Source: Candidatus Gottesmanbacteria bacterium RIFCSPLOWO2_01_FULL_43_11b
Lineage (GTDB): Bacteria; Patescibacteriota; Microgenomatia; UBA10105; UBA927
Direction: 5' to 3'
Length of the DNA stretch: 64,000 nucleotides
NCBI GenBank assembly: GCA_001780985.1
Contig: MFJV01000001.1
Location: forward strand, 428,049-492,048
Under the pieces are notes generated by a model that was not told where the DNA came from, searched no databases, and was given only the letters and a program-made list of their open reading frames with translations. The position numbers and the translations under genes were made by a program. Shown here piece by piece: positions 17,856 to 63,242 of the stretch (positions are counted from its first letter, which is position 1; every line of letters starts with the position of its first letter).

Positions 17856-17867
17856 AATCACAATTAA

Positions 17868-17911
17868 GGGCAACGGTGGACACAACCTTTTGACGGGTTG
17901 AACCGTTGCCC
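17868..17911. promoter_or_regulatory. Perfect 10-bp inverted repeat in the recombinase 5' leader
   Basis: GGGCAACGGT-24 nt-ACCGTTGCCC, 13 nt upstream of the recombinase ATG. Confidence 0.3.
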
Positions 17912-21626: not shown

Positions 21627-21690
21627 TCCTTCCCTCTGTTTGTTCTCATGGCAGTCATTATATACCCAATGGTGATATAATTTAGCAAGT

Positions 21691-22923: not shown

Positions 22924-22995
22924 GTCAGGGTAGCTCAGTGGTAGAGCACCAGTATCATAAACTGGTCGTCGAGAGTTCGATCCTCTCCCCTGACA
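22924..22995 (+). tRNA. tRNA-Met(CAU), elongator-type (G1-C72); could also be tRNA-Ile2 (lysidine). Intron-less.
   Basis: Manual fold: acceptor GTCAGGG/CCCTGAC; D arm GCTC-AGTGGTA-GAGC; anticodon arm CCAGT-ATCATAA-ACTGG; T arm GAGAG-TTCGATC-CTCTC; discriminator A. Confidence 0.85.
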
Positions 22996-23089
22996 CAAGA
23001 GTTTTGTTTTGAGGCCGCCACGCGGCCGAAATCCCGCCACGCGGGACGATCCATGCCGCTGGCACTTCGTTTACTCAGTGCAAGCACTT

Positions 23090-35093: not shown

Positions 35094-37489
35094 TTTATAA
35101 ACGTAAACCGCAGGAGTGAATCCTGCGTCACCGTGGTATTGTACTCGAGATGCCCTCCTTTTGCAAGAAATTCTTGCTCCCCTTTAATTTCCCAAAATGG
35201 CGGATATTCGAGAGTAACCACCATAGAAACGTCACTTATTCCCGGTTGCTTCTGAAAAAACATTTCGTAATCTGCTTTGCCGTCTTGGAACTGAAGGTTT
35301 AATCCGGGCTTATACGAAATAGCTAACTGTCCGGTGGATCCGGGCATAATATCAACCGCAACTCCAACCACACCTGATGCCTGATCAAACTCCACAGGTA
35401 CCCCGTTAAAAAGAACGTCTTCTATTTCACTCTTATCTGGGACCATGTTTCGGATGTAGAGTCGATATATGCCACCGCTGTCTTCTGGTTTACCGGAAGA
35501 TTTATTTTCAAAACTCACGGTCACTTTCTCTGAAACTACTCCATTTGAAGCAATGGAAACCCCTCGAGAAATCTGGCGCGTGACAAAGTAGTTAGCTTTG
35601 TTAACACCAAGATTTGCCTCAACCGTCATCAACGGATCGAACGTACACCCGCCTGAGACTCCCTCACATCCTAGCCTTGCAAATACTTCCCCCGACCACC
35701 CAAGCCCAGTAACTACACTCTCAAGTTCCGGATCTGGGAAGTATACTAAAAGATCCCGTCGAGTCAGTCCGTTCGTCATTGCCCGAAACACCCCGGCAGG
35801 ATTAATGTTACGTGAAACAGTGAGTTCATTAATGAGTGTACGGGTCAAACTTCCCAAAAAATCTTTTTTCTGAGTTGATCCGGGAAAGAAATCGGATTGG
35901 GTGTAAAAAAGCGTCTTCCCATAGAAATTCTGGGCTGTAATTCTGTCATTATAATCGACCAACGTCAGCGGTCCCAAAGCAGAAAGGAGGTCAACGATAA
36001 ATGGCGTACTTATTGCTACCACTCCATCAACGGTAACACCGGTTTCCTTTTCGTAAAACCATAAAGCTTGACTACCAGTGTTTCGAAAGTCCGGGTCCCA
36101 GTTGCTGTCACGGAGATACCAGTGAATTTCACCAAGGATATCTCGTATTGGGTCGGGCGGATCGATGTGCCCCTTGAGTTGTCCGTCGAGTTCATATACA
36201 TCGCGAACCTCAATATTTGTTATCCTCCCATCCTCGGTTGTCAGAAGAGCAACACTCCCAATGAAACCGCCGGTAGGACGAATCTCTAAGCTGTTTTGGA
36301 GAAGTACTAAAAAGTGTTGTTGCTGTCGGAATCCGGCAACCGATGGGTAAAGCAGGAGAAGAGCATCGAGTGAAGAAATGGTTTGGCGGTAGTGGGAAAG
36401 CTCACCCGCTCCTCTATTTCCGATTTTTTTAAGAGCTGAGGTTACAAACGGGAATGACGATTCAGAAAGAAGTGCGTTGAGTTGTGACTCTGCAAGGCCG
36501 AGTCCGCTATGAACTGAAAAGAGTTCTGTTCGTAATTTTTCTACTTCATGCGCTGGTGAACCTGCTTTATTTGTATCGGAAGCAAGAGAAAAAAGGGTCG
36601 TTGCTAAAAATCTTCCTCTGGTAAATACGTCATTTGCACCCCCAATGGTGAGGGCCATGCTGTCAATCAATGAAAGAAACCGCTCTTGCCCATAGACGAT
36701 ATCCTCATTTATTAATGAAACCGGGACTTTCACAATGTCGAGTATTCCGGCACTTTGACGGATCCAGAATCTGCTCATTGGTGTAAGTTGAGATATAAAA
36801 GTCACTTTGCCAGACCGAAGCCAAAGCCCGCTTACAACAACAGTAAGGGTTGCAAACGAAAGTGCTATCCAATACCACAAAAATGGAAGGAGAATAAGAA
36901 GTGGGATGACTATCTTCCAATGGATAGTACGTTTTACTTTTTTTCGAGAATGCTTACTGTTTCCGTCTTTGGTAAAGATTGATTGCACTATACGATTTAT
37001 TCTCTCCGTATCGCTTTCATCACCAATCTCCATAACGTGAGCCGCTTGCTCACTGGTTGAAGGTACGTACGCTTCTCGGTGATTTTTGGGATTTTTTCTC
37101 AAATCAAGTAGTTTTTTACGGGAAGTGAAGAAAAATCCAAGCATGTCGGATACTAATTCTCTTGTTAGTACGGGTTCATCCATAATGACTACTTTTGCCT
37201 TACGCTCAAATTTGTCGACATTTTCATCATCTCCGTCCGATAAGATTGCCAGGCGCTTTCCCACATCATCGCCGGATGAAGAAAGAATTTGTTGCACGAA
37301 GGATGAATGACCGCAGATGATATGGTACTGAGGGAGAATTTTAGAATGTTGATTGACGACAACGTGATACCCAAATGAGAGAAAAAAATCCCGCAACGGT
37401 TCTATGAAGCTTTTCTCCTGAGCGTCAATACGGACAATTTGCTCGTTCTCCGATTGATCGCCCTCAGTGTGTGATTTGGCAGGTGTCAT
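35090..37489 (-). CDS. Large membrane-anchored protein of unknown function
   Basis: 799 aa. Cytoplasmic N-domain, one TM (IVIPLLILLPFLWYWIALSFATLTVVV), large extracytoplasmic domain. Confidence 0.5.
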   Translation of the reverse strand: MTPAKSHTEGDQSENEQIVRIDAQEKSFIEPLRDFFLSFGYHVVVNQHSKILPQYHIICGHSSFVQQILSSSGDDVGKRLAILSDGDDENVDKFERKAKVVIMDEPVLTRELVSDMLGFFFTSRKKLLDLRKNPKNHREAYVPSTSEQAAHVMEIGDESDTERINRIVQSIFTKDGNSKHSRKKVKRTIHWKIVIPLLILLPFLWYWIALSFATLTVVVSGLWLRSGKVTFISQLTPMSRFWIRQSAGILDIVKVPVSLINEDIVYGQERFLSLIDSMALTIGGANDVFTRGRFLATTLFSLASDTNKAGSPAHEVEKLRTELFSVHSGLGLAESQLNALLSESSFPFVTSALKKIGNRGAGELSHYRQTISSLDALLLLYPSVAGFRQQQHFLVLLQNSLEIRPTGGFIGSVALLTTEDGRITNIEVRDVYELDGQLKGHIDPPDPIRDILGEIHWYLRDSNWDPDFRNTGSQALWFYEKETGVTVDGVVAISTPFIVDLLSALGPLTLVDYNDRITAQNFYGKTLFYTQSDFFPGSTQKKDFLGSLTRTLINELTVSRNINPAGVFRAMTNGLTRRDLLVYFPDPELESVVTGLGWSGEVFARLGCEGVSGGCTFDPLMTVEANLGVNKANYFVTRQISRGVSIASNGVVSEKVTVSFENKSSGKPEDSGGIYRLYIRNMVPDKSEIEDVLFNGVPVEFDQASGVVGVAVDIMPGSTGQLAISYKPGLNLQFQDGKADYEMFFQKQPGISDVSMVVTLEYPPFWEIKGEQEFLAKGGHLEYNTTVTQDSLLRFTFIK

Positions 37490-43774: not shown

Positions 43775-44976
43775 CTTGCCAGTTTCCTCACCCAGTCTTT
43801 AAACTGATTCCCTCTATCTTCGTAGTCTTTAAAAAGATTGAAACTTGCTGAAGCAGGGGAGAGGAGACAAATTTTATTCTTCGGCGTATGCTTGTATGCT
43901 AATTTCACTGCTTCTTCCATACTCCGAACGAAAAATTTTTGTATAGACACATCTCTGCCAATTTTTTCACCGGTATCCGGAAATAAAATAAGTGTTTTGA
44001 CTGGATGTTTATTGAGATAATCTCTTAGTATTGTGTAATCCAATCCCCGGTCAAAACCACCGGCAATCAATGTCTCGACATCGCTTCCTAATGCACGAAG
44101 TGCATGAATTGTTGCTTCTGGAATAGTTGCCAAAGAATCATTAAAAAAACGAATTTTTTTATATTCGCCCACAAATTCTAATCGGTGAGGAAGTGGATGA
44201 AATGTACCAAGAGATTTTTTGATGGTATCACCAGAAATATCAAAATATTTCGCAACCGTAACTGCCGCCTGAATATTTGTGGTGTTTCCACGAAGCGTTG
44301 GCGCGGAAAATTTTGAATCAACAATAGGAATTTCTTTACCAAGGCTGGTTTCTGCGATTTTTTTAACAGTGGAGTGAAAAATAACAACATCTTTTTTTGT
44401 CTGAAAACGAATGATGTTGGTTTTAGCCCGTACGTATGCGTCGTAACTTGCGTAATAATCGAGGTGTTCGGGAACAATCGGGAGAAGAATGGCGATGTGC
44501 GGGCTATAGCGAATGTCTTCAAGTTGATGACTAGAAAGTTCAATAACAAATATTGTTTTGTTTGTTACTCCATCAAGGTGATCCAACATTGGGCTGCCAA
44601 TATTACCTACAAGCCGAACATCAGAAAATTTTTGTTTCAGTATGTGAGCAGTCAGGCTTGCAGTCGTGCTTTTACCTTTTGTTCCTGTAACTCCCATCGT
44701 TATTCCTTTACGCTGTGAGAAAAATATATTCGTCGCTGTGGTTATCCACCCACTGTTTTTTTTATAGTCTACAAGCTCCTGTAGTCTACTAGGAATCCCC
44801 GGAGAGCGGATAACGGTGTCATACTCATTGAGATGTTTAAGGTAATCTTTTCCGTCTTTTTGATCAGCGGTGTTGATTATAATATTTGGATAGTGCGCAG
44901 CGAGAAATCTCTTCACGCTCTGGCCTTCGCGTCCAAATCCAAGAATAAGAATCTTTTTGCCTCGAATTTCGTTCAT
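43771..44976 (-). CDS. murD: UDP-N-acetylmuramoylalanine--D-glutamate ligase
   Basis: KKILILGFGREGQS Rossmann N-domain; GVTGTKGKSTTASL P-loop. Confidence 0.8.
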   Translation of the reverse strand: MNEIRGKKILILGFGREGQSVKRFLAAHYPNIIINTADQKDGKDYLKHLNEYDTVIRSPGIPSRLQELVDYKKNSGWITTATNIFFSQRKGITMGVTGTKGKSTTASLTAHILKQKFSDVRLVGNIGSPMLDHLDGVTNKTIFVIELSSHQLEDIRYSPHIAILLPIVPEHLDYYASYDAYVRAKTNIIRFQTKKDVVIFHSTVKKIAETSLGKEIPIVDSKFSAPTLRGNTTNIQAAVTVAKYFDISGDTIKKSLGTFHPLPHRLEFVGEYKKIRFFNDSLATIPEATIHALRALGSDVETLIAGGFDRGLDYTILRDYLNKHPVKTLILFPDTGEKIGRDVSIQKFFVRSMEEAVKLAYKHTPKNKICLLSPASASFNLFKDYEDRGNQFKDWVRKLAR

Positions 44977-46289
44977 AAAATTTTTAGATATGCTTCCGGG
45001 ACGAAATGGTTGTTGTTTCGGGCAGAAAGAACCCTCTCATCAACCACCCCTATTTCTTTTTCGATATTAAGGAGATCTCTCGGCGGTTCTTTCCCCAAAC
45101 TTTGGTAACGCTTGATACTAAGCGTAACAGCAAGCTTTGCTTCATCAGTCGTCACGACACATTCAAATGGCTTATGTGAACCTAATCCGACAAGTTCTCT
45201 CACGAACCCAATAATTTCCGGCTTTGTGAAAAGGTCTCCACCAAAAATTGAAATCACCTGCTCATACGCAACAAAAGGAAAGAGCATGAGAAAGGTAGAA
45301 GCACACTTTGCGCACTTACCGCACCAGCTGTCGGTTTTTGATCCTACGTTACAACTTCGAAAAGAAGAAAAATACTGTGGAAACTCAGAAAACATTTTAC
45401 TAATCTGCAATTCGTTGAGTGGGCGAAGCAAGCTAAAATACTGGTATTTATCTGTTAAATATTTTTGCGCGTACTCGCGAAACATTTTTTCAAAGCGATA
45501 ACTTTTTGAATATTGGTGGTTAACTTCAACGCCATGAAACATCACGTTTCCCTCACTAGCGCTCGCTTCATTACTTACGATCACGTTTTCATATCCGTGA
45601 AGAACCGCGACGAACAATCCAAGAAAAGCTAAGTAAGCTGAGAATGGCGTGTGGCCGTTGAGGTACCCCATGTTATTAAGCTCCAAAAGTTTCGGGTCGA
45701 TGGTGCGCTTAACAATGATTGGATTGGTGAGACCCGCAATTTTTATAGCATCCAACGCCGCTCGTGTTGGATTGAGGACAAGTGGGCGGGTGGGGTGACC
45801 CGATTTTTTGAGGAGCTCCAGTGTAAGAGCCGAATCTTTTCCCCCGCCGACGAGGACGAGATCACGGGATAAAGGAGCTGGTATTACGTATTTCGTATTA
45901 GGGTTTAAAGACGAAGAAATACGAAGGAAATCTTTTTGCGTAAAATCAATGTTATTTTTGTAAAAAAATTCGCCTAGCCCGTTTAAAAATAAATCGTGCC
46001 AAAAGGTTATTTGTTCTTGATTCAGACTACCAGCCCTGACAACAAGCTCAACCGGGCACGCTGCTTTCCAGTAGCTAATGCATTCAACCATCCCCAGGTG
46101 GAACGCAAACAAATCAATAATTGACTTGTCTATTTTTGTTTCAATCGGAATTGTGAGTGTCGGGTGAAATATGATATCTGGTTCAAGCGTCAGCGAAAAC
46201 TGAATGCTCAGCTTACCACCCTCCTCTTTGACCTCAAACGATTCGTAGATAAAGCGGGGGTGCTTCCTTCGCAGCTCTGTGAAAGTCAT
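44973..46289 (-). CDS. PP-loop superfamily ATP pyrophosphatase with zinc ribbon; specificity unknown, possibly N-acetyl-sugar amidotransferase-like
   Basis: LVGGGKDS (SGGxDS-type PP-loop) near residue 150; CGKCAKC. Confidence 0.45.
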   Translation of the reverse strand: MTFTELRRKHPRFIYESFEVKEEGGKLSIQFSLTLEPDIIFHPTLTIPIETKIDKSIIDLFAFHLGMVECISYWKAACPVELVVRAGSLNQEQITFWHDLFLNGLGEFFYKNNIDFTQKDFLRISSSLNPNTKYVIPAPLSRDLVLVGGGKDSALTLELLKKSGHPTRPLVLNPTRAALDAIKIAGLTNPIIVKRTIDPKLLELNNMGYLNGHTPFSAYLAFLGLFVAVLHGYENVIVSNEASASEGNVMFHGVEVNHQYSKSYRFEKMFREYAQKYLTDKYQYFSLLRPLNELQISKMFSEFPQYFSSFRSCNVGSKTDSWCGKCAKCASTFLMLFPFVAYEQVISIFGGDLFTKPEIIGFVRELVGLGSHKPFECVVTTDEAKLAVTLSIKRYQSLGKEPPRDLLNIEKEIGVVDERVLSARNNNHFVPEAYLKIL

Positions 46290-50658: not shown

Positions 50659-52029
50659 ATGGATATCGAAAAACTTTGGAAAACAATCCTTGCCGAAATA
50701 GAGCTTTCTGTAAGTAAGCCAACCTTCCACACGCACTTTGCGCAAACGAAACTTGTCAATCTCAAAGACGGAGTCGCTACTATTGGTTGCACAAGTCCGC
50801 TCATGCGGACTCTTATTGAGACAAAGTATTACAGCTTAGTAAAAAGCCTCCTTGATGCACATACAAAATTAAATACCAGCCTGGTTTTTGTAGTGCTGCC
50901 AAAACAACTCACAGAAAAAGAGGCAGGACCACTTTTTGCTCAGGCCTTATCGTCTCCTTCAACCGACTTTATTGCGCTTGCTAAAAATCTTCGTATTAAT
51001 CCAAGCTATACGTTTGAAAATTTTGCCGTATCTACGACCAACCAGCTCGCTTACGCTGCCGCAACCGCGGTGGCCAAAACCCCCGGAGATGCGTACAATC
51101 CTCTGATTATTTATGGCGGGGTGGGGGTCGGAAAAACGCATCTCATGCATGCGGTTGCCAACCGGCTCATAAATAAAAAGCCGGGGACGCGCGTCGTGTG
51201 TTCTATGGGTGAAGAATTCCTTAATGAAATTATTGCCGCCATTCAAACGAAGTCCACACAAGCGTTTAAGAGGCGCTATCGGAGCGCGCAACTCCTCCTT
51301 ATCGACGACGTACAGTTTATCGCAGGAAAAGTCACGGCCCAGGAAGAGTTTTTTCACACGTTCAATGCGGTTGTGCGGGAGGGGGGGCAGCTTATTCTTA
51401 CCAGCGACCGGCCACCGGGAGAAATTGCGCGGCTTGAAGATAGGCTCCGTAGTCGTTTTGAGGGGGGACTTGCTGTGGATATTTCTCCGCCGGACTTTGA
51501 ACTTCGCGCCGCAATTGTCAACATTAAAGCAGTCTCTTTAGGAGTGGTCGTTCCTGCTGACGTAGGCCAGTTGATTGCTGCAAATATCACTGATACGCGT
51601 GCAATCGAGGGGTTTTTGAGAAGACTAGCAACCGAGGCAGCAACGCGCGGAACGCCTCCCTCAATTGAGCTAGTTTCTTCTCTGCTTCGCATTAAAGATG
51701 AGGGTGGTGCGGGTGAAGGGTCTCACCGCGTTTCTCCCCAAGAGCTTCTGGAGGCCGTAGCAAACCACTTCGGCATTAAACAAACAACGCTCAAGGGGCC
51801 CAAACGGGACCGGCCCATTGCCCGTCCGCGCCAGGTGTTTATGTACCTTGCCAGGGTTGAGTTGGGTCTTACACACGATGACATCGGTGGACTTTTGGGC
51901 GGCCGGGATCACACAACTGTTATGCACGGCGTTTCCACAATAACGCAAGAACTTTCCACAAACGTTGCGCTTCGACAGGGGGTTGAGGGGATAAAAAACA
52001 ATCTTTTCCACTTATCCACAAAGTCGTAG
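50659..52029 (+). CDS. dnaA: Chromosomal replication initiator DnaA
   Basis: AAA+ GGVGVGKTHLMHAV, DDVQF, C-terminal DNA-binding domain RDRPIARPRQVFMYLAR...GGRDHTTVMHG. Confidence 0.95.
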   Translation: MDIEKLWKTILAEIELSVSKPTFHTHFAQTKLVNLKDGVATIGCTSPLMRTLIETKYYSLVKSLLDAHTKLNTSLVFVVLPKQLTEKEAGPLFAQALSSPSTDFIALAKNLRINPSYTFENFAVSTTNQLAYAAATAVAKTPGDAYNPLIIYGGVGVGKTHLMHAVANRLINKKPGTRVVCSMGEEFLNEIIAAIQTKSTQAFKRRYRSAQLLLIDDVQFIAGKVTAQEEFFHTFNAVVREGGQLILTSDRPPGEIARLEDRLRSRFEGGLAVDISPPDFELRAAIVNIKAVSLGVVVPADVGQLIAANITDTRAIEGFLRRLATEAATRGTPPSIELVSSLLRIKDEGGAGEGSHRVSPQELLEAVANHFGIKQTTLKGPKRDRPIARPRQVFMYLARVELGLTHDDIGGLLGGRDHTTVMHGVSTITQELSTNVALRQGVEGIKNNLFHLSTKS

Positions 52030-52170: not shown

Positions 52171-53280
52171 ATGATTATTAGTATCCTGCAAGAAAACCTG
52201 CTTAAGGCTCTTACAAGAACGGGGAGAATACTCTCGTCAAAACCGCAGCTTCCCATAACGCAAAGCGTTTTATTAACAACCAAAGAGGGGCGCCTGTGTG
52301 CGGTTACTACCAACCTTGAAACAACAGAGCGCGTGTGGGTTGGAGCAAAAGTAGAAAAAGAAGGGGGAGCGTGTGTTTCCTCGCGTCTTCTAACCGAGCT
52401 TGTTTTGACGCTACCAACAGAAACCGCCCGGCTGCAGGGGGTTGACGGAGGGCTCTCCGTTTCCTGTGCAGGATTTAAAGCGAGCCTTCCCGGGGTTCCC
52501 ACACAAGAGTTTCCTCCAACCCCGGAGATTAAGGAAAAAGACAGAGAAAAAACAAACAAAGACACGTTCGCTTCCGCTCTGTCTCTTGTTCTGTTTGCAG
52601 CAGCAACCGACGAAGGAAGGCCGATGTTAACCGGCGCGCGGTTTTTAACAGAAGGGAAAACGACAACAATTGCAGCAACCGATGGGTACAGATTGTCACT
52701 CAAAAAGATTCCTGCGATGAGTCGAGAGGATCTTGACATGGTTGTTCCTGCAAGAGCGCTCCTCGAGGTTGTGAAGTCAAGCTCCGAAGAAAAAGAGGCA
52801 CAGGAAATTTTCTTTTCGAAAACCGACGGAAGCCAGCTTGCGTTTTCCGTTGGGGACACGGACATTATTACCAGAATTATTGACGGCGAATATCCGAACA
52901 TTGCAAAAATAGTTCCGACAAGCTTTACGACAAGAGCCCTCTTTGACAAGGAACAACTTTCCCGCGCGGTTAAGTCTGCGGCCGTGTTTGCGCGCGACAA
53001 CGCAAACATTATCCGATTCACCCTTGAAAACCAAGCGGTGACAATCTCAGCAGAATCTGCTCAGGTTGGGAAGAATGAGGTTGAGGTTTCGAGTAAAATT
53101 GATGGAGACGGCGGGGAGATTGCCTTTAATAGCAGGTTCCTTTTAGAGTTTTTAGCAAATTTCCCCGAACCAGAGGTTCTCTTTGAAATGACCGGAAGTC
53201 TCAACCCCGGCGTTTTTCGCCAGGTCAAGGACGACTCGTTTCTCCACATCATCATGCCCGTTCGGACCACCTCAGGGTAA
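52171..53280 (+). CDS. dnaN: DNA polymerase III beta sliding clamp
   Basis: 369 aa, three-domain clamp. Adjacent to dnaA. Confidence 0.9.
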   Translation: MIISILQENLLKALTRTGRILSSKPQLPITQSVLLTTKEGRLCAVTTNLETTERVWVGAKVEKEGGACVSSRLLTELVLTLPTETARLQGVDGGLSVSCAGFKASLPGVPTQEFPPTPEIKEKDREKTNKDTFASALSLVLFAAATDEGRPMLTGARFLTEGKTTTIAATDGYRLSLKKIPAMSREDLDMVVPARALLEVVKSSSEEKEAQEIFFSKTDGSQLAFSVGDTDIITRIIDGEYPNIAKIVPTSFTTRALFDKEQLSRAVKSAAVFARDNANIIRFTLENQAVTISAESAQVGKNEVEVSSKIDGDGGEIAFNSRFLLEFLANFPEPEVLFEMTGSLNPGVFRQVKDDSFLHIIMPVRTTSG

Positions 53281-54299: not shown

Positions 54300-56411
54300 T
54301 TATGATCCTGTTTGAATAACGGGACAATCGAGACACCCGCGCGTGTTATTTGAACACCCTAGTACCTCCTGCGCTTGCGATGGTGTCAACGGTAAAAGAT
54401 CAAGAATGTTTCCTGGACCACTTTGAATGCCAACGTGAAGGTGGTTGCTGGTTGATGAGCCGTTATTATCAACTTTTCCAATTTGGGTTACCCCCTTTGT
54501 TACAGATTGTCCTTTGGAAACCAAATTAATGGTTGTTAAAGAAAGATGTGCGTAGCGTATAATTGCTCCGTTCGGCGTTTCAATGTCAACATAATTTCCC
54601 CACCCCTGATTACAGCGGGATGTTCTGGATGGTCCTACCGCAGTGTCAGCGCATCTACCTCGTACGTCTGAAATTGTTCCATCCGTTATGCTGTAAACTT
54701 CTGTGCCATAATTAGCCCCAATGTCAACGGCATTCATACTTGCATGGGAAGATCTACACGTTGCGTACGGTCCTTGTGTAATGTAGCCGTTTGTAGGCCA
54801 GAGACAGTCTCCTGTTGAGCACGGGGTAAGCGTACAGCGGGGATCCTCGGGTGTTTGCGAGCAGTTAATGATTGGTCCGCCGCTGCCATAACCACCGCCT
54901 ACGCGTTCCCCTTGAAACGGTCCAAATTCTGAAACTGTTTTGAAAAAGAAAAGTATCGGAAAACCGATGACGACGAAAAGAAGAGAGGCAATGACGATCC
55001 ACTCAGCCGAAGCCCAAAAACTTTGTGGTTTTCCGGGCCCTCTCCTGCCGAAAAACGATGCAAAAACGCTTCCCCCAAGCCAGCCGAGAATCACTCCGGG
55101 AAGCCCACCAATGGCTCCAACAAGTCCGCCAAACCAGCGACCAACCGTTCCGCTACCAGCTTTTGCAACAACAGCACTCGTTGCTTTTCGAATCCCCCAA
55201 CCGGAAGCTTCGTTAAAAAACAGATGGAATAGTCCGGGAGAACGACTGTGGGAGTCAGCAACCCTGACTTGATTAACTGTGTATGATTCCGGCGCAAGCC
55301 CTAAGACTTCTAAAACAAATACATCTACAGCAACAGGAGGCCCGGCAATAGAACTGGCGAGATCCCAGATGAATGAGCGCGCCCGACCGCCGCCTTTCCC
55401 AAAAACTTTATTTCCCCGTTCTATAGCATTCTGAAAAACAGGCGATTCAACAATCAGGCTCCCCACTCTCTCCTGAGTTTTTTCAATCGCTCCCTCAATT
55501 TTTCCTAACCAGACAGACCGTACGATATCATCGCGGACGTTTTTGGGATAGATAGAAAGAAGCGCATCGGCAACGCCTTGAACAGGCTGCCGGAGCCCCG
55601 AAACTCCAATCTTTGAGAAAACCCCGGGTTTGATTTCAATATCCGATGAAGGGGTTGCCTCGAGCGCTTCGGCAACACGGGCAAGTCGATCCACAACCTC
55701 AAACGAAGGCGCTGGATCAACGCTCGCTAGAGTAGCGTACGTTTCAAGCCATCGTGCTTTGTCGGTGCCCGACCACTCAAACATTTTTTGAGTTATTTCT
55801 TCTTCCGAAGGAAGTGGGGCAGCAAGGACTCGAATTGTCTTATCGGCTTTTTCTAAAACAATTTCTGCAATCGGTTTAACCCGCTTTCCAAATTCTTCAG
55901 ATCGGGCGCTTGTTGCGGCAATTCGAACTAAAGCCAACCCCATTTCCTCGCGGAGCTTCCGGGGGTCCCTCGTTTCTTTTGCGAGTTTTGAAAGTTCATC
56001 AACAAGGCGTTGTTGAAGCGCTGGCTCATTCGGGAAACGGGCAAGAGCGCGTAGTTCATCTACATATGCTCCGGCGATGCGCCCGATGTTTTGACGCCGC
56101 GACCCCTCGATCTTGTCGGTAATGTGGGGAAGATTTTCAGAAATTGACTCAACGAGAACTCCTGGAGCGATCTGCTCAAATTCCGCCTGTTGCTCGGGCG
56201 GTGTGTTTTCTTTGAGAAACAATACAAATTCTGTTGAAAATTGCTCGAGAATCTCTAAAAATTGGGTGTTTGTAAAGACAAATGGAACTCCGGAGAGAGC
56301 GAGGTTTTTTTTAAATTGCTCGTATTTTCCCGGATAAAACTCGTGGGCAATGAGGAGGTTTTTGAGTCCCTGCGTAAATTTTTGTTCGTCTGCCATAGGA
56401 TCATTTCTCAT
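54300..56411 (-). CDS. Membrane protein with C-terminal M23 (LytM) peptidase domain
   Basis: Large cytoplasmic N-domain, TM segments, then Cys-rich M23 domain (GWGNYVDIETPNGAIIRYAHLS...HLHVGIQ). Confidence 0.65.
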   Translation of the reverse strand: MRNDPMADEQKFTQGLKNLLIAHEFYPGKYEQFKKNLALSGVPFVFTNTQFLEILEQFSTEFVLFLKENTPPEQQAEFEQIAPGVLVESISENLPHITDKIEGSRRQNIGRIAGAYVDELRALARFPNEPALQQRLVDELSKLAKETRDPRKLREEMGLALVRIAATSARSEEFGKRVKPIAEIVLEKADKTIRVLAAPLPSEEEITQKMFEWSGTDKARWLETYATLASVDPAPSFEVVDRLARVAEALEATPSSDIEIKPGVFSKIGVSGLRQPVQGVADALLSIYPKNVRDDIVRSVWLGKIEGAIEKTQERVGSLIVESPVFQNAIERGNKVFGKGGGRARSFIWDLASSIAGPPVAVDVFVLEVLGLAPESYTVNQVRVADSHSRSPGLFHLFFNEASGWGIRKATSAVVAKAGSGTVGRWFGGLVGAIGGLPGVILGWLGGSVFASFFGRRGPGKPQSFWASAEWIVIASLLFVVIGFPILFFFKTVSEFGPFQGERVGGGYGSGGPIINCSQTPEDPRCTLTPCSTGDCLWPTNGYITQGPYATCRSSHASMNAVDIGANYGTEVYSITDGTISDVRGRCADTAVGPSRTSRCNQGWGNYVDIETPNGAIIRYAHLSLTTINLVSKGQSVTKGVTQIGKVDNNGSSTSNHLHVGIQSGPGNILDLLPLTPSQAQEVLGCSNNTRGCLDCPVIQTGS

Positions 56412-59400
56412 TTACCGGCTCAACGGTAAATATGGGTCGTGCTGGCATGTTTGGTTGAGGTGAGGGTGTCGGTTGTGCCGGTTGTTTTTGCGCTCTTGAC
56501 TCTAATTCCTGCGGTTTTGTGGTGGCAAGCGCATGTTCTTCAGGGCTTGCAATAACGCGCATTGCCGCATGAGCAGGTCCGGCAAAAAGCAAACCCTCGC
56601 CGATGTCTGCAGCCAGCAATAAATGTTTTTCTCCCTCAGACAGGTAAAAAATCTCTGCGACCTTATCAATTGCAGCTGAGGACTGTTTGAGAAGAATTTG
56701 CATGGAACTATTCTGAATAATTGCTTTCCCCAACTCCACCGCAAGGAAATCTTCAACATCTTGAGTAATCGTCGTGACCCCAAGGTAGTATTTCCGTGCG
56801 CGCTTGGCAATCGAATTTAGAAATGTTGCCGAATCCGGGTATTTCATCATGTACCACGCCTCATCGACGATTAAAAGTCTTCTTTTTGTGTCTTTTCTGA
56901 TTTTGGTCCAGATAAAATCAAGAATAAGATACATGGCAATGGGGCGCAGTTCCTCCTCAAGATCGCGGATGGAAAATACGGTGAGCGGATTTCTAATTTC
57001 CACATTGGTTTGCGCATCAAAAATTCCCACCATGCTGCCTTTGACAAACTTTTCTATGCGGTCAGCTAAGCCCTTGGCCAAAGGCTCCTCCATACCCACA
57101 AGTGTTTTATAGAGATCTTCCATCAGAGGAGGTTCAGTCGATTGAGACGCTGGATCTGGGGTAATTCCCTTTTGCTTGTACGTTAAGACCAACGCTCGGT
57201 CAAGGAGCGCGTCTTCGCTCGGAGTAAGTTTGCCCATAACAACCCGGAAGAAACCGTGAAGGGAGAGAATTTTTTGGTTCAACTCGCTCTCTTTTTCTCC
57301 CTTATGCTGTAAAAGAGCTAAGTCAAAGGGATTTATTTTTGTATTTGTGCCAAACTGGAATCGAATATACTCGCCCCCCAATGCATGGGTAAGCGCTTCA
57401 TATTCACTCTCTGGGTCGATAATAATAACTTCTGTGTCAAACATAAGCGAACGCATCACTTCAAGTTTCACCATGTAGCTTTTTCCGGAACCGGAATTAT
57501 GAACAAATACCCCCCCAGAACCACCCAGAAAGACTTCATTGTCTACTGTTAAATCATAGACAAAGGACTCATTGTGCTTGATTTGTTCAATATTTACGAC
57601 TGGATCCCAGAAAAGATCCGACCGAGCGAGTTGACGTAGATGATGGAGTTTTTTTTCGGCGTGGCGCAAGGTCAATTGTAGCGAACGGTATCGTTTGGAA
57701 AGGACGGACACCGCATTTTGAATTGGCGGATAGGCGGTATCGCCGGGGCGCCTCGCCTCATTTCGGATAGTTGTCCAAAGCGAATTGTCATATCTCTGAA
57801 GAGAAATGCCGATTTCTTGAAATACATCATAGAGCTCGTGTTTGATTTCGGGGAGGGAGATTGTTTCACCAGAGACGGTTTTCCAGGCGCGAAAGACAGT
57901 GGTTGCCTTGGGAATGACCGCACGGTGTTTCATAAGTTTCCATGTGTGTCCTAACTCTTTCCAAAGAGCTCTGTGAAGCTGTTTGTGTTTGATGCCACGG
58001 GAAATAATGGCGTCAACGGAGGGAAGGTTCTTCAGTTGCATGACGCGGCCACGAAGCGACCGAAGTTCGATAATGCGATTTTCCATGAGAGTAATAATCT
58101 CAATGAGTTGTTCCCGTGACGGAGAAAAAACGCCTCTTTTAAGCGGAGAAAGGTTATATGGTGCTCGTATGTCATCACCCTGATATAACTGCGCATGGAG
58201 TTTTTGTAGCGTGCGCGATAACGTGGGAATCGTATCCACGTTCGTATTGGGATGTTTTCCCAACAACCCTAAAAGTTTTTGCTGTTTTCTGAGAGTGAGA
58301 AAACCAATGGAGCTTGCAAACCTCGTAAGATGATCTCCTCCAGAAATTACCAGCTCATAATAGGTATCGCCGGTGTGTTTGCTATTGGTAGCTCTCTTCC
58401 ATTTTGTTCGGATTCTCCCTACGATTCCAAATCGAAGAAGTAAATAACAAATGTCTGATATTAAGTCACGAGATTTTGACATACAAGCAACTTCCCACCC
58501 CGACACGGTTCCGTCGCCCTCGTAGTATGCTCGCAGATACGCGGCAATCTGTGTGTTTGACAAAGAGAAAATAATGGACGGAACGCGCTTTTGACCTGAT
58601 CTTCCGCCCGCGCCCAGAGCAGAAAACAGCTTGGCATACGCATTTGGTTGAATATTGTACCCACAAAGAATACGACCAGAAGCATATCGGGGTGCTGTTT
58701 TAGCGCCGATTCCGCTGGTTGCGTTCTGAATGGCGGAAAGCACAAAGGGATCTCTGTTGTAAATGGTAAGCGTTGACGGGGAAAGGTACCCTTCGCTTGT
58801 CGTAAGCCCCAGAATCGTTAGAAGATTTGATTCCAAAGGAATAGTTTGAGGTAATCCCATTGGCCACGAAGGCACGAATGTTTTTGGATAGATAGGGCTC
58901 GTCAACCCGATTGACTCTGGGAGAAATCGTGGAACAGGCACGGCTTCTCCTACGCGCACCGCCTCACCTCGCACCGATCGCACGCGGCCATCTCTCAAAA
59001 CAACCAAGCTGTGGTCAGCAGTAACGGTAATGTGTCGTCCGCTTTTTGTGGTAATTTTATAAAGTTTTTCGCGTTTTGAAAGTGGCTTGCGCGCAGCAGT
59101 AGCGACTTGGGCCCAGCGTCCTTTGAGCTCATTGTTGTAAGCGTAGACCTCAATACCCGGAAGCCTTACTCCCTCCATCTCTTCTTCTCGGTGGGTAATA
59201 CCATGTTTGTTAATGAGAGATTCTACAAGGTTGCCGATCGTTTCCATTTTTGTTTGACCGTTTTGCCGCACGAGAACCGGTTCCCACCTTGCTATCGATT
59301 TCCCAAAAACAACCGTGTTAGCGTTTTCTAAAGTGAACCTATCAAAAACAATGAGACTGTCGTTTCCTTCGTTAATCCCGTAGAGGATGCCTTCATTGGC

Positions 59401-60072
59401 GGTAAGCTCACTCGTTGTAAACGGGAAGGTGGTGGCAAGTGAAGTTGTGTCCATATTTCGTAAGATAACGAGTTTATCCTGGCTCATGGGGAGGGTGGTT
59501 TTGAGCCCCTCTTCCATCTGAAGGATTGCTTTTTTAGTGACAATGAGAAGCGATCCCAGGGTTGCCTCGACTTGCTTCGTTGTTCGGTCGAGGTCGTCGA
59601 GGCTTTTTGCCGGAATGGTGACGTAGAGGCCAAATTGGAAAAACCGCTCAGATCCTTTTGCAAGTTCTTGTTGAAGAGCAAGCGCATCCTCGAGCGCTAC
59701 CTGAATAGAAGGTTCAATGACTCTGCCGCGTTTCATATCGGATTGGATCGTTGCCTCCATTTCTCCGACTTTTCTCTTAAGATTTTCCAGAACCTCCTCG
59801 CTCCTGGTCGGATAAACGTACATGGCAATATCGAGGGTATGTGAGAAAGAGATGAGCGGTTCGAGCCAGTTAGCTGATACATAGCGCGGGTAGCCGGCCA
59901 CGAAGAGGGTGCGGAAGTATCGGTCGCCGATTTTGAGGTGGTCAAAATCAACCTCTATTGCAGGTGGTGCAATCAGATCCCGCACGGAAAGGGGCTCGCC
60001 GGTATCAGCATTCGGCCTGTTATCCTCAGGCATGGGATTTATGAATTTTTTAACAAGCGTTGTTATATTCAT
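56401..60072 (-). CDS. VirB4/TraC-like type IV secretion ATPase interrupted by an intein
   Basis: Split Walker A: NTVVFGK then intein then SGSGKS. Walker B LLIVDEAWYMM. 622-aa extein after removing the intein. Confidence 0.75.
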   Translation of the reverse strand: MNITTLVKKFINPMPEDNRPNADTGEPLSVRDLIAPPAIEVDFDHLKIGDRYFRTLFVAGYPRYVSANWLEPLISFSHTLDIAMYVYPTRSEEVLENLKRKVGEMEATIQSDMKRGRVIEPSIQVALEDALALQQELAKGSERFFQFGLYVTIPAKSLDDLDRTTKQVEATLGSLLIVTKKAILQMEEGLKTTLPMSQDKLVILRNMDTTSLATTFPFTTSELTANEGILYGINEGNDSLIVFDRFTLENANTVVFGKSIARWEPVLVRQNGQTKMETIGNLVESLINKHGITHREEEMEGVRLPGIEVYAYNNELKGRWAQVATAARKPLSKREKLYKITTKSGRHITVTADHSLVVLRDGRVRSVRGEAVRVGEAVPVPRFLPESIGLTSPIYPKTFVPSWPMGLPQTIPLESNLLTILGLTTSEGYLSPSTLTIYNRDPFVLSAIQNATSGIGAKTAPRYASGRILCGYNIQPNAYAKLFSALGAGGRSGQKRVPSIIFSLSNTQIAAYLRAYYEGDGTVSGWEVACMSKSRDLISDICYLLLRFGIVGRIRTKWKRATNSKHTGDTYYELVISGGDHLTRFASSIGFLTLRKQQKLLGLLGKHPNTNVDTIPTLSRTLQKLHAQLYQGDDIRAPYNLSPLKRGVFSPSREQLIEIITLMENRIIELRSLRGRVMQLKNLPSVDAIISRGIKHKQLHRALWKELGHTWKLMKHRAVIPKATTVFRAWKTVSGETISLPEIKHELYDVFQEIGISLQRYDNSLWTTIRNEARRPGDTAYPPIQNAVSVLSKRYRSLQLTLRHAEKKLHHLRQLARSDLFWDPVVNIEQIKHNESFVYDLTVDNEVFLGGSGGVFVHNSGSGKSYMVKLEVMRSLMFDTEVIIIDPESEYEALTHALGGEYIRFQFGTNTKINPFDLALLQHKGEKESELNQKILSLHGFFRVVMGKLTPSEDALLDRALVLTYKQKGITPDPASQSTEPPLMEDLYKTLVGMEEPLAKGLADRIEKFVKGSMVGIFDAQTNVEIRNPLTVFSIRDLEEELRPIAMYLILDFIWTKIRKDTKRRLLIVDEAWYMMKYPDSATFLNSIAKRARKYYLGVTTITQDVEDFLAVELGKAIIQNSSMQILLKQSSAAIDKVAEIFYLSEGEKHLLLAADIGEGLLFAGPAHAAMRVIASPEEHALATTKPQELESRAQKQPAQPTPSPQPNMPARPIFTVEPVNEK
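57496..59298 (-). other. Intein (~601 aa) with LAGLIDADG homing-endonuclease domain, inserted in the VirB4 P-loop
   Basis: N-terminal Ser (SIARWEPVLV...GNLVE, block A). TVTADH (block B). ILGLTTSEG and AYLRAYYEGDG (LAGLIDADG-like). C-terminal VYDLTVDNE...GVFVHN followed by +1 Ser. Confidence 0.6.
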
Positions 60073-60716
60073 GGTTTTATAAATTTACTAACATCAGGTG
60101 CCGGTTGACCAGGATTGTAGATTGAGAAAAAAAACTTTATGAGCTGCTCACTTGTCATCTGCGTTGCCCGGAGTCCGATTCTTCCCAATAACCTCACGAC
60201 ATGGTCCCGCTTTGGGTAAAGTACCATTGTCGAACGGTCAAAAATGTACTCTTTGGGATAGGGGAGGCCGGGCTTTCCACCCCCGAAAAGAATTTTAGGA
60301 GCAGATCCAAGTTCAAGTCGAGAAAAAGGAATAATAATGTAGAAGTTTTTATCCAGCACTTCTTTTTCTTTCACTGTTGCCTCAACAAACAGTCTATAGG
60401 AATGGATGCTTTGGGCAAGTTTCGGGCTTTTTTGCAGCTTTTCCTGTTCTTCAAGAAGTTTTAAGTATGCCGTGACATCCTTATGTTGAGATCGAATAAG
60501 AATTTGGATGGGGAAGGAGAGCGAATTGAGAAGCCCTGCGTAGGCATGGATAATTGCTTCCTGTTCCCGTTCAGAGAGTAAACCGAAATTAACAGCAGTT
60601 GTCGTAATAACAAGCGAAACTGACCCGTCAGTAAAAAGCACTAAATCATTTTCGATATCTTCTATCTGCGTAAATTCCTGCGTTGTGGACCTAATTGGGA
60701 CGACTGGTTGTTTCAT
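60069..60716 (-). CDS. Hypothetical protein (T4SS-like cluster)
   Basis: 215 aa, no TM. ATGA overlap with the VirB4 gene. Confidence 0.4.
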   Translation of the reverse strand: MKQPVVPIRSTTQEFTQIEDIENDLVLFTDGSVSLVITTTAVNFGLLSEREQEAIIHAYAGLLNSLSFPIQILIRSQHKDVTAYLKLLEEQEKLQKSPKLAQSIHSYRLFVEATVKEKEVLDKNFYIIIPFSRLELGSAPKILFGGGKPGLPYPKEYIFDRSTMVLYPKRDHVVRLLGRIGLRATQMTSEQLIKFFFSIYNPGQPAPDVSKFIKP

Positions 60717-61984
60717 TGTGTGTTTCCAAATATTTGCTGAGCAAGTTTTTGTCTCTCGAGCTCTTTTTGACTTTTTGCCAGTATTTCAATTGTCGGGAGC
60801 ACCGCGTTGTTGACAACAATTTGCGCTCTATCAAAAACGTAGCGTTCGCGCGGATCCTCAACCTCGACAAGGTACGTTCCGGGGGAGAGCGCAGTGCTCG
60901 CTGCAAACTGGCCGAGTCTGTTTGTTTTAAGCGCCCGAAGCGGCACTCCTTCTTTATCCCGCACGGTAACTAAAACCGAGGGGAGGAAGTTGCCTGCTGT
61001 GTCTTTCACAATGCCCGTGACGACATTGGGATAGGTGGTTAAGCGCGGGAGGCCTGCTTTTGCAGCTGCTGACGGGTCGATAATTTTAATTGTTGGTTCT
61101 GTTGGTTTCTCTTCGGAAATAACAGTGGCGGTTTTGGTCGGCTGACTTTGTGTCGGCGCACTTGTTGTTTTGCGTCGTAGGGCAACAACCTCTTCTTCAA
61201 GTTTTCGTTTGTCGGAAAGTAAGTCAGTCAATTGTTTTTGAAGCTCCAAGACCCGAGAGTCCGAAACGTTCTTTTGGGTAAGTTCTGTCTCGAGTTCCTC
61301 AACTTTTTGGCTAAGTACTGCGCTTTTTTCATCAGGAGCTGGAGAAACAACCTCTTTTATCTCCGGTTGTGGCGTAACCTCAGGCTGGGGCCGTTTCCCA
61401 ACGACTGTCGGGGGCAGCGTAAATGCCGGTTGAGCCAGGGGTTGGGTTTTTGGTTTGAAGGTAAAAAGATTTTTTAGCCAAACGAGAAAACCACCCGGAG
61501 GGTTCATTGTAAGGATGCGTAGACCAGAGAACATATCAGCGGGCGACCGAGGAGTTGGTTCTTTTGGTGTTACCGGAGGTTTAGTAGCAACATGATGGGC
61601 TTGAGCAGCCGGTTTTTGCTTGGGCCTCCTTGACCAGACGTATTGGGTTGGGTTGTAGATACTTTTAAAAAATGACATAACCCATACATCCATGGGTCGC
61701 TCTTCGACAGGAACAAACGCAAAACCAATACCTAAAAGTGCAAAGAACACCGTCAGTGGCCAGGTAAAAAAGAACGGAAGAGGAAGTTTGTAGGATATAT
61801 ACGCCAGAACTCCTCCGATACAAAGATATCCGAATTGTTTGAGCGTCATGTCGCCGATTAAACGGAATTGGAAGGTAGTAACATTCTGTGGCACAGGGTG
61901 CTGTTCCATATACAAATTATTGTAAAGGTATGACGATAGGTCGCGCAATAGTACAAAGCGCATCAGAACCGTGAAAACTGGCAT
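60713..61984 (-). CDS. Membrane protein with Pro-rich linker, coiled coil and C-terminal carboxypeptidase-regulatory-like beta-sandwich
   Basis: Two N-terminal TMs; PKEPTPRSP linker; ELETELTQKNVSDSRVLELQKQL; C-terminal VTGIVKDTAGNFLPSVLVTVRDKEG. Confidence 0.4.
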   Translation of the reverse strand: MPVFTVLMRFVLLRDLSSYLYNNLYMEQHPVPQNVTTFQFRLIGDMTLKQFGYLCIGGVLAYISYKLPLPFFFTWPLTVFFALLGIGFAFVPVEERPMDVWVMSFFKSIYNPTQYVWSRRPKQKPAAQAHHVATKPPVTPKEPTPRSPADMFSGLRILTMNPPGGFLVWLKNLFTFKPKTQPLAQPAFTLPPTVVGKRPQPEVTPQPEIKEVVSPAPDEKSAVLSQKVEELETELTQKNVSDSRVLELQKQLTDLLSDKRKLEEEVVALRRKTTSAPTQSQPTKTATVISEEKPTEPTIKIIDPSAAAKAGLPRLTTYPNVVTGIVKDTAGNFLPSVLVTVRDKEGVPLRALKTNRLGQFAASTALSPGTYLVEVEDPRERYVFDRAQIVVNNAVLPTIEILAKSQKELERQKLAQQIFGNTQ

Positions 61985-62017: not shown

Positions 62018-62578
62018 ATGAAAATCGGACTTCTTGGCGGTGCGTTTAACCCGCCGCATCTTGCCCACCTCCATATGGCTGCTCAATCTATTGATTTTGC
62101 AGGATTTGATGAAATTTGGTTTTTGCCAAACTTCGGCCAGCAACCGCCTAAGCCTGATGTGGCATCTGTAAAGGACCGGCTCGCAATGACCAAAATGCTA
62201 AGTCTCCCTAAAACAAAAATCTCAACACTTGAGATAGATAACAAACTTTCAGGCAATACCATTGAGCTTCTTCCGTATTTACCAAAAGAACATTCGTATA
62301 CATTTATTATGGGCGTTGACTGGCTCCCGTCATTTACCCAGTGGGGGAGTTGGCAGGAACTTATTAAAAAACTTCCGTTCCTCGTTTTTCCACGGTCGGG
62401 ATTTCCCAATGAACCGCTCTACGAGAATATGACAGTTCTTTCGCATCCCTTACTTATGATAAACGACATTTCCGCGACAAAAATTCGAGAGAGAGTTAAA
62501 CAAGGGCTCCCAATCGATCAGTTTGTCCCGTCCGGCGTGGCGGAGTATATTAAAACCCATGAACTCTATAAATCCTGA
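62018..62578 (+). CDS. nadD: Nicotinate-nucleotide adenylyltransferase
   Basis: MKIGLLGGAFNPPHLAHL (HxGH-type). Confidence 0.85.
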   Translation: MKIGLLGGAFNPPHLAHLHMAAQSIDFAGFDEIWFLPNFGQQPPKPDVASVKDRLAMTKMLSLPKTKISTLEIDNKLSGNTIELLPYLPKEHSYTFIMGVDWLPSFTQWGSWQELIKKLPFLVFPRSGFPNEPLYENMTVLSHPLLMINDISATKIRERVKQGLPIDQFVPSGVAEYIKTHELYKS

Positions 62579-63242
62579 AAAAACCGCGGCTGAATTAACA
62601 AGTTTTATAAAAAATGCTTTTGACAAAGCAGGATTTACAAAAGCAGTTATCGGGGTTTCCGGGGGGGTGGATTCGGCGACAAGCCATGAGCTGACAAAGC
62701 GTGCATTGGGCGAAAAAAACGTCTTCCCGTATTTTTTACCCTACGAGAAGATTAAACCTATTGTTGATCAGGTTGTTTCTCTTGATCCTGGAATGGACAG
62801 GCTGCGGCAGGGAAATATCATGGCCAGAGTCAGAATGACAATTTTATTTGACCAAGCCAAGAAAAGACAGGCCCTCGTAGTAGGCACGGAGAACAAAACT
62901 GAACACATTTTGGGGTACTACACAAGATTCGGCGATAGCGCTTCTGACATCGAACCTTTGAGAAATTTATACAAAACGCAGGTCTATCAACTCGCAAAAT
63001 ACCTCGGAATTCCGGATAAGATTTTAAACAAAGCGCCGACCGCAGGACTTTGGGAAGGACAGACGGATGAAGGAGAGTTTGGTTTTACCTATAAAGATGC
63101 AGACGAAGTTCTTTTTCAGCTCTATGATCTTAAAAAGGACAATGTTGAAGGCGTCGACCCAGGCGTTGTTGAGAAGGTGAAATCACGGGTCTCTCGTAAT
63201 GCCTTCAAACACAGTCTTCCGATCTTGCCTTTCGACTATTAA
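62559..63242 (+). CDS. nadE: NH3-dependent NAD+ synthetase
   Basis: PP-loop VIGVSGGVDSA. Start taken at MNSINPEK; the track start at 62523 overlaps nadD. Confidence 0.8.
   Translation: MNSINPEKTAAELTSFIKNAFDKAGFTKAVIGVSGGVDSATSHELTKRALGEKNVFPYFLPYEKIKPIVDQVVSLDPGMDRLRQGNIMARVRMTILFDQAKKRQALVVGTENKTEHILGYYTRFGDSASDIEPLRNLYKTQVYQLAKYLGIPDKILNKAPTAGLWEGQTDEGEFGFTYKDADEVLFQLYDLKKDNVEGVDPGVVEKVKSRVSRNAFKHSLPILPFDY

Follow-up and report, generated by a model that had tools for sequence, protein, structure and literature searches.

How can the VirB4-like ATPase of a type IV secretion system (T4SS) function when its ATP-binding loop is interrupted by 601 additional residues, and how did these residues come to lie there? 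The question is raised by a gene in a 64,000 nt stretch of the genome of Candidatus Gottesmanbacteria bacterium RIFCSPLOWO2_01_FULL_43_11b (contig MFJV01000001.1, positions 428,049 to 492,048), referred to throughout as the window, whose own numbering is used for all coordinates. We conclude that a chromosomal virB4-like gene of this Candidatus Gottesmanbacteria-type Patescibacterium very probably hosts a bifunctional class-1 intein whose splicing, homing and family history are as proposed below. Taken alone, such an element is expected biology; what rises above routine is the apparent shift of its clade between two insertion sites, a helix-turn-helix (HTH)-derived domain that is an orphan by fold, and the exchange of inteins recorded at silent sites.

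An intein within the Walker A motif of a VirB4-like ATPase

The precursor of the virB4-like T4SS ATPase (56401..60072, reverse strand, as are all of its parts) is encoded by a 3.67-kb open reading frame (ORF) of 1223 aa plus stop that is open throughout; it shares 4 nt with the gene upstream of it and 11 nt with the one downstream, a sign of an operon. Its translation places the N-extein at residues 1-258 (59299..60072), ending NTVVFGK, where the last two codons, GGG AAA (59299..59304), supply the first two residues of Walker A. The intein, delimited by translation, profile matches and fold, runs from Ser1 to Asn601 (601 aa, precursor residues 259-859, 57496..59298). The C-extein (residues 860-1223, 56401..57495) has Ser+1 as its first residue, carries the rest of Walker A at its start (SGSGKS, 57478..57495) and contains a P-loop_TraG / AAA_10 ATPase domain with the Walker B motif LLIVDEAW. 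With a slash marking each junction, the translation reads ENANTVVFGK/SIARWEPVLV on entering the insert and GGVFVHN/SGSGKSYMVKLE on leaving it, the C-extein side beginning SGSGKSYMVK; between the two lie, in order, S1, T93-A-D-H96, LGLTTSE169G, YYEGD262G, VYD582L and H600-N601, followed by S+1. An earlier note, made from the sequence alone, had described a LAGLIDADG intein in the Walker A motif of a VirB4-like ATPase, with recognisable splicing blocks (Ser1, TxxH, terminal HN and a +1 Ser) and with VVFGKSGSGKS regained on removal of residues 259-859. Pfam and NCBIfam profiles, the predicted fold and clean excision agree with that description, all of the named blocks are found in the translation, a combination far outside what chance would give, and the loop is restored in the 622-aa spliced protein. 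The observation is real and its core interpretation, the identity and placement of the intein, is confirmed.

Excision yields a protein with an intact Walker A (GKSGSGKS) and Walker B. Against NCBIfam NF045971 (VirB4-like conjugal transfer ATPase, CD1110 family; curated equivalog cut-off 325 bits) the precursor scores 378.9 bits in two pieces and the spliced extein 402.1 bits in a single piece (residues 27-566, profile positions 184-730); because the first ~183 profile positions are uncovered, the N-terminus of this VirB4-like protein is shorter than the model. The spliced protein is 90% identical, at 100% coverage, to intein-free proteins of 616-620 aa reading VFGKSGSGKSYMVKLE. None of its best 120 matches (596-757 aa, several of them named Candidatus Gottesmanbacteria) has intein domains, and VFGKSG[SGA]GKS occurs in all 16 of the intein-free matches that were read. 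One intein-free relative (P0121) lies on a 49.8-kb contig, locus L081, where the genes follow one another as in the window: nadE, nadD, prgI, a gene for a 215-aa protein, virB4, an M23-peptidase gene, a gene for a 335-aa protein, dnaN and dnaA. The empty site of L081 reads TTT GGC AAA/TCC GGT TCT GGA AAA AGC and its window counterpart TTT GGG AAA/(1803 nt)/TCC GGT TCC GGA AAA AGC, so that the boundaries of the insert match the empty allele to the codon. In all three comparisons, with the profile, the intein-free proteins and L081, the two extein halves are contiguous with VirB4 homologues, as the earlier reading requires.

Splicing domain and endonuclease

Sequence profiles and fold also agree on the Hint and LAGLIDADG similarity of the insert that the earlier note had proposed. 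Over its whole length the insert matches Pfam Intein_splicing (PF14890, 58.9 bits, cut-off 35.8), and its ends match NCBIfam intein_Nterm (TIGR01445, 43.2 bits, cut-off 24.5) and intein_Cterm (TIGR01443, 18.0 bits, cut-off 15.6), in addition to the intein portions of many intein-containing NCBIfam equivalog models. The N-terminal part of the Hint domain (residues 1-130, 58909..59298), with block A (Ser1) and block B (T93-x-x-H96), is defined by TIGR01445 and by alignment with PI-PkoII and the TFIIB mini-inteins, and the C-terminal part (residues 561-601, 57496..57618), with block F (DLFWDP...VYD582L) and block G (FVH600N601), by TIGR01443. Of the solved structures, PI-PkoII (7.5e-20) and the TFIIB mini-inteins come closest in sequence, with blocks A-B and F-G aligned. 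Among 56 relatives T93, D95 and H96 are invariant, as are D582, H600 and N601; position 1 is Ser in 52, Cys in three and Thr in one, and the +1 residue is Ser at all junctions read. Class-3 inteins have a Cys nucleophile in block F and a WCT triplet, and they lack an N-terminal nucleophile; this class is ruled out here because Ser1 is present and block F (VYDLTVD) is without Cys, and the same two features place the element in class 1. From its sequence the element is a class-1 intein with a two-motif LAGLIDADG endonuclease, and splicing is predicted.

The endonuclease domain (residues ~140-345, 58264..58881), recognised by profile and fold, matches Pfam LAGLIDADG_3 (PF14528) with 62-64 bits (cut-off 22.5), nested within the Intein_splicing match. 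An AlphaFold2 (AF2) model of the intein has a mean predicted local distance difference test score (pLDDT) of 77.7, rising to ~90 in the nuclease and in the helical part that follows it; the two motifs, LGLTTSE169G and YYEGD262G, are the ends of model helices 157-169 and 248-262. The nuclease residues are kept in almost all of the 56 relatives (E169 in 54, D262 in 56, K275 in 55), and all three are present in the window copy, whose endonuclease is probably functional. The best Foldseek matches of the model in the Protein Data Bank (PDB) are the inteins TliVMA (7qss/7qsu, 7e-16), PI-PkoII (2cw7, 3e-14) and PI-PfuI (1dq3, 6e-13), then PI-SceI (1vde), with E-values from 7e-16 to 5e-8 across the four, all of which share a Hint fold split by a two-motif LAGLIDADG nuclease; behind these inteins come the nuclease enzymes I-DmoI and I-Tsp061I and the PI-PfuI nuclease domain.

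A basic helical domain of probable HTH ancestry

The solved endonuclease-inteins measure 432-537 aa, compared with 601 aa here, and the extra length is due to a basic, all-helical accessory domain of ~215 aa (residues 346-560, 57619..58263) recognised from the AF2 model, its charge and hhalign. The earlier note had called the intein unusually long, which is true beside the matched solved structures but not within its own family, whose range of 522-668 aa makes 601 aa ordinary and mid-range. The domain has an isoelectric point of 10.5, with 36 Lys and Arg against 18 Asp and Glu, and is modelled with pLDDT 88-92; folded alone it reaches pLDDT 88 and a predicted template modelling score of 0.79. 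It begins with a conserved NTNVD motif and a degenerate XRE-type HTH. Pfam does not recognise it, and Foldseek finds nothing significant in the PDB (best E 0.44, TM ~0.2) or in BFVD.

A clue to its ancestry comes from related inteins hosted by HerA-type ATPases (P0332, P0341) and by UvrB (P0009, P0010), which share NTNVD followed by an HTH and in which Pfam detects HTH_3/HTH_31 (XRE-type) at exactly the same position, directly after the nuclease. With hhalign, the profile of the window-family domain aligns to the HTH region of P0332 with a probability of 94% (E 9e-8); over the HerA and UvrB inteins the probability ranges from 62 to 94% (82% for P0009, 80% for P0010). The aligned stretch extends from the NTNVD motif to "LSPLKRGVFSPSREQL", and within it a deletion has cost the window family six residues. 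Whereas the HTH of the HerA and UvrB inteins is seen by Pfam, that of the window family is invisible to it, carries the deletion and is followed by ~150 extra helical residues. The domain would thus be an HTH-derived, DNA-binding accessory extended by ~150 helical residues, and it probably adds DNA contacts. XRE-type HTHs occur in inteins of other ATPases, and an accessory of this sort may be typical of the lineage at large. The accessory DNA-binding parts of solved inteins, such as the DNA-recognition region of PI-SceI and the stirrup of PI-PfuI, are different structures, and the basic helical domain may be a DNA-binding module of a new type that could interest designers of meganucleases.

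A large intein family in Patescibacteria

Public Patescibacteria data contain 107 distinct sequences of this intein family (522-668 aa). A search with the intein only returned Patescibacteria entries named "ATP-binding protein" or "LAGLIDADG endonuclease", 35-57% identical over the full length; automatic annotation mislabels intein-bearing virB4 genes in this way. Scans of genome and metagenome contigs with the single sequence found nothing, whereas scans with an intein alignment found loci in both. In one genome per GTDB species the alignment identified 55 loci (L001-L054, L060) at which tblastn aligns the window precursor over its full length, as a VirB4-like ATPase that includes the intein. 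The hosts are of Microgenomates type (Gottesman-, Ames-, Collier-, Woese- and Curtissbacteria) and of Parcubacteria type (Kaiser-, Uhr-, Magasanik-, Yanofsky-, Taylor- and Zambryskiibacteria), together with Saccharibacteria. The corresponding scan of JGI metagenomes added 79 further loci. Five loci in Micrarchaeota (L055-L059) hold a related intein of 522-538 aa in an ATPase of the HerA/VirB4 superfamily (DUF87, AAA_10, P-loop_TraG), and its junctions, GITGSGK/S...HN/SY, fall at the same GK/S of Walker A, so that the lineage is present in bacteria and archaea alike, in both cases ultra-small ones. Neither 72,556 plasmids (tblastn with the intein) nor viral contigs yielded a family member, and there is therefore no evidence for a plasmid or phage vector.

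Position 1 varies within the family: L049, L133, L152 and L153 open with Thr (GK/TVEKNEPV, GK/TVHGDESV and GK/TIRGSERV), and Cys occurs at this position in L012, L014, L025 and several metagenome loci. To our knowledge a Thr1 nucleophile is very unusual among inteins. In another relative (P0006, 902 aa, on a 10.4-kb JGI contig) the C-extein ends 14 residues past the intein (HN/SYFVIYFIFFQFRI*), possibly reflecting a disrupted gene, a frameshift or an assembly error.

The kind of element is already known, a class-1 LAGLIDADG intein in a P-loop ATPase; the family is undescribed. The earlier note's statement that inteins in T4SS ATPases are rarely described does not hold: Novikova et al. 2016 (PMC4760082) listed, in their Table 3, 21 inteins in archaeal VirB11 and five in VirB4 (COG3451) of Firmicutes and Proteobacteria, and in Patescibacteria the present family has the 107 distinct sequences above. 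Those VirB4 and VirB11 inteins likewise occupy T4SS-type ATPases with P-loop NTPase hosts, but the VirB4 cases are from Firmicutes and Proteobacteria, with insertion points that are not in the main text, while the window family is confined to Patescibacteria and a few DPANN archaea and sits in chromosomal clusters without a relaxase among the ORFs scanned. The same authors describe P-loop insertion sites in DnaB, MCM and RFC (PMC4760082). Inteins of DnaB (site b), MCM (site a) and RFC-S (site a), in the site names used for those proteins, are similarly situated inside Walker A and leave the host inactive until spliced; DnaB inteins are the commonest remote matches of the window intein (25-31% identity over about half of the intein), but all three groups have other host proteins and are without the C-terminal helical domain. 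In the literature searched, no description of inteins in Patescibacteria VirB4 was found, and the family is both large and previously unreported.

Two insertion sites five codons apart

Within Walker A the family uses two positions. At the one that we call site b the junctions read [FL][GA][KT][SA]GxGK/S...HN/S[YF]xxKLE, the intein separating Lys from Ser in Walker A GK[ST]; almost the whole family is found here, including all archaeal members and members from every class sampled. At site a, five codons (15 nt) upstream, they read VVFGK/S...HN/SG[SG]GKS[YF], and this is the position of the window intein and of L001-L005, L028, L082-L089, L112, L138 and P0002. Residues -2/-1/+1 are G/K/S at both sites. 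Inteins of both sites align in register from residue 1, and in the MAFFT alignment a gap of five residues falls in the exteins. The site-b inteins in VirB4 of Patescibacteria (L006, L011 and P0003 among them) are of the same family as the window intein (36-50% identity over the full length) and have its domain order, host protein and GK/S context in common, but their position five codons downstream makes them non-allelic with it.

In neighbour-joining (NJ) trees rooted with the archaeal sequences, the site-a inteins are monophyletic in 100 of 100 bootstraps with 56 sequences and in 50 of 50 with the 107 distinct sequences (13 of them at site a), and their clade is nested among site-b inteins of Microgenomates-type hosts. 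Because site a is monophyletic and nested within site b, and by parsimony (13 versus 94 sequences), this suggests one ectopic shift from b to a, the host loop FGKSGxGKS offering a second GK/S. The upstream look-alike GK/S is present only where the loop is F-G-K-S-G-x-G-K-S.

Proposed splicing and homing, and movement between hosts

Since Walker A is cut after Gly-Lys, the precursor should be unable to bind ATP. Judging from the conserved residues, splicing would start with an N-O acyl shift at Ser1, after which Ser+1 would attack the resulting ester, Asn601 would cyclise with the aid of His600 to release the intein, and an O-N shift would join the exteins as VVFGK-SGSGKS into the 622-aa VirB4-like ATPase, which would then serve the PrgI / VirB4 / M23-hydrolase secretion cluster next to dnaA and dnaN. 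The free 601-aa intein would act as a single-chain LAGLIDADG homing endonuclease that cuts alleles lacking the intein where they encode the P-loop, and the intein would be copied into the cut allele as the break is repaired.

Host and intein relationships within the site-a clade are in keeping with such a cycle. The window extein is 90-93% identical to intein-free alleles and 67-88% identical to the site-a host exteins compared, and the extein tree intersperses the site-a hosts with 120 intein-free alleles; we infer that the clade has moved between host lineages since the shift, leaving a patchy presence and absence. Identity at four-fold degenerate sites is higher in the intein than in the extein in three pairs: L004-L087 (0.76 versus 0.41, p 8e-16), L001-L005 (0.68 versus 0.38, p 2e-8) and L084-L085 (0.69 versus 0.46, p 9e-7). 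In these pairs the intein entered or was exchanged after the host alleles had diverged, which is also what homing predicts. Co-divergence of intein and extein over site-a pairs was not found, the correlation of their identities being not significant (Spearman 0.19, p 0.12), a result that is weak alone but fits transfer. Ratios of non-synonymous to synonymous substitution (dN/dS) in unsaturated pairs were 0.05-0.24 overall, with 0.08-0.24 for the Hint part, 0.09-0.23 for the nuclease and 0.09-0.16 for the helical domain, so all three parts are under purifying selection.

Several points weigh against this account. Splicing and DNA cleavage, along with its cut site, are predictions, and the AF2 model is poor over N-terminal Hint residues 95-132 (pLDDT < 50). 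The DNA-binding role of the helical domain is argued from its charge and from remote homology of its first ~65 residues only. The b-to-a direction comes from archaeal-rooted NJ trees and parsimony, with no likelihood test, and the mechanism of the shift, cutting or repair at a pseudo-site with micro-homology GGN AAA/TCN, is conjecture. The window copy itself bears no mark of recent arrival: its nearest relative, the intein of L082, is 76% identical in amino acids, four-fold degenerate identity between the two loci is the same in intein and extein (0.35 versus 0.34, p 0.92) and saturated, and the G+C of the intein (0.473) matches that of the exteins (0.466). With third-position G+C (GC3) also close (0.448 versus 0.483), compositional anomaly was rejected as a sign of recent arrival. 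The earlier note had taken a probably intact endonuclease to imply recent mobility; the nuclease residues are indeed present, but no recent transfer of this copy can be read from saturated silent sites and equal G+C. The site-a clade is mobile, as seen in three sister lineage pairs; recent mobility of the window copy is unsupported.

The same observations lend some weight to a different history, in which the intein is a domesticated relic that still splices but whose endonuclease no longer homes, inherited vertically in this genome for a long time. No collection scanned holds a close relative, and in composition the intein is indistinguishable from its host gene. Even so, the window copy retains K275 and the acidic residue of each LAGLIDADG motif, its sister lineages show purifying selection on the nuclease and helical domains as well as movement between hosts, and the closest relatives of its extein are intein-free, implying ongoing gain or loss. 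We therefore regard a relic as unlikely and retain the bifunctional, homing intein as the explanation.

Proposed retargeting from site b to site a

The two sites might also be explained without a move, if site a were ancestral, if the sites were colonised independently, or if the extein had re-registered around a stationary intein. In favour of this, the trees are distance-based with an assumed root, and the sites share only G-K/S. Opposed to it are the presence of site b in all classes and in archaea, the confinement of site a to a single fully supported clade within site b, and the alignment of the inteins in register from residue 1. Re-registering would in addition need a 15-nt deletion and an opposite 15-nt insertion, passing through a P-loop-less intermediate in an important gene. 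An origin of the two sites without a move is accordingly improbable.

For the clade to which the window intein belongs we lean, on balance, towards natural retargeting, a 15-nt hop to the upstream GK/S that kept the -2/-1/+1 context and was followed by homing there, in an intein that also carries the fold-orphan HTH-derived domain, possibly a DNA-recognition module new to LAGLIDADG enzymes. Goodwin et al. 2006 (PMC1635734) regarded ectopic intein moves as very rare since flanking homology is missing, and found no flank similarity for their own candidate cases; in the case of site a and site b, by comparison, flank similarity is visible, though short. If retargeting is true, a rare ectopic movement of an intein is tied to recognisable flanking similarity. 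One lineage at two non-allelic sites 15 nt apart, at the same GK/S, is in effect a clean natural experiment on how a new target is accommodated by homing endonucleases and splicing domains. A variant in which an AGC codon for the Walker A Ser shields site b, so that the nuclease turns to the TCC upstream, is unsupported, the codons of site-a hosts being mixed (AGC, AGT, TCG, TCA).

Consequences for the host ATPase

A P-loop intein means that the signature ATPase of the T4SS must be spliced before it can work, in a minority of Patescibacteria lineages. The intein could for this reason serve as a post-translational switch as well, with the secretion ATPase gated by conditional splicing at the P-loop, a role already suggested for P-loop inteins generally. 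Insertion in the ATP-binding loop requires an inactive precursor, the clustering of inteins at such sites suggests a function (Novikova et al., PMC4760082), and the family has been retained over many Patescibacteria classes. Yet the best 120 extein matches are all intein-free, a pattern expected of a parasite and not of a regulator. The Ser1/Ser+1 splicing chemistry is, moreover, without obvious redox control, and we consider a switch quite improbable.

Bacterial intein-like (BIL) domains typically lack a C-terminal HN with Ser+1 and a nested endonuclease. A BIL domain, or a non-splicing insertion that has made virB4 a pseudogene, is hardly credible and was rejected: although splicing is deduced from sequence and the N-terminal nucleophile is Ser and not the more usual Cys, the frame is fully open, the class-1 catalytic residues are all present and invariant in 56 relatives, dN/dS is well below 1, the boundaries equal the empty allele to the codon, the hallmarks of a true intein (C-terminal HN, Ser+1, nested endonuclease) are in place, and a cultivated relative reportedly depends on a T4SS cluster of this kind for its epibiotic growth (PMC12102498).

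The secretion cluster and its neighbourhood

The intein-bearing gene belongs to a cluster on the reverse strand. Upstream lie a gene for a PrgI/VirB3-like T4SS protein of 423 aa (60713..61984; Pfam PrgI 29.1 bits, cut-off 27) and, between it and virB4, one for a 215-aa protein of no known family in a Pfam scan that is conserved in L081 (60069..60716); directly downstream is the gene for a 703-aa membrane protein with a C-terminal Peptidase_M23 domain, a T4SS cell-wall hydrolase that is likewise syntenic in L081 (54300..56411). The cluster adjoins dnaA (50659..52029) and dnaN (52171..53280), both on the forward strand, which places the intein-bearing virB4 near a probable replication origin; L081 is arranged alike. 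Among the window ORFs scanned, which cover part of the window, there is no relaxase and no coupling protein.

These features fit the T4SS of Patescibacteria described by Quinonero-Coronel et al. 2025 (PMC12102498) from a survey of 2,474 virB4 genes: MPF-FATA-related, chromosomal, often near dnaA, mostly without a relaxase, and essential for the epibiotic growth of cultivated Ca. Southlakia. The window cluster that matches it comprises PrgI, the 215-aa protein, the VirB4-like ATPase and the M23 hydrolase and lies beside dnaN and dnaA. That survey appears to make no mention of inteins, as it was not returned by a full-text search for "intein" and "Patescibacteria".

On the far side of the cluster nadD (62018..62578) and nadE (62523..63242) overlap on the forward strand. 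In the corresponding stretch of L081 (2535..4238) a 23S_rRNA_IVP-family gene separates the two, and several toxin-antitoxin-like genes (HepT/MNT, HicA) come after, a local flux of gene content beside a conserved T4SS cluster.

Elsewhere in the window, two reverse-strand ORFs of 438-453 aa (20340..21701 and 44973..46289) are without a Pfam match at E <= 1e-5; DUF4012 is the only domain recognised in a 799-aa protein, also on the reverse strand (35090..37489). The sole tRNA gene found in the 64 kb is a forward-strand tRNA-Met (22924..22996). A large serine recombinase of 586 aa with Resolvase and Recombinase domains is encoded on the reverse strand at 16125..17885 and may mark an integrated mobile element.

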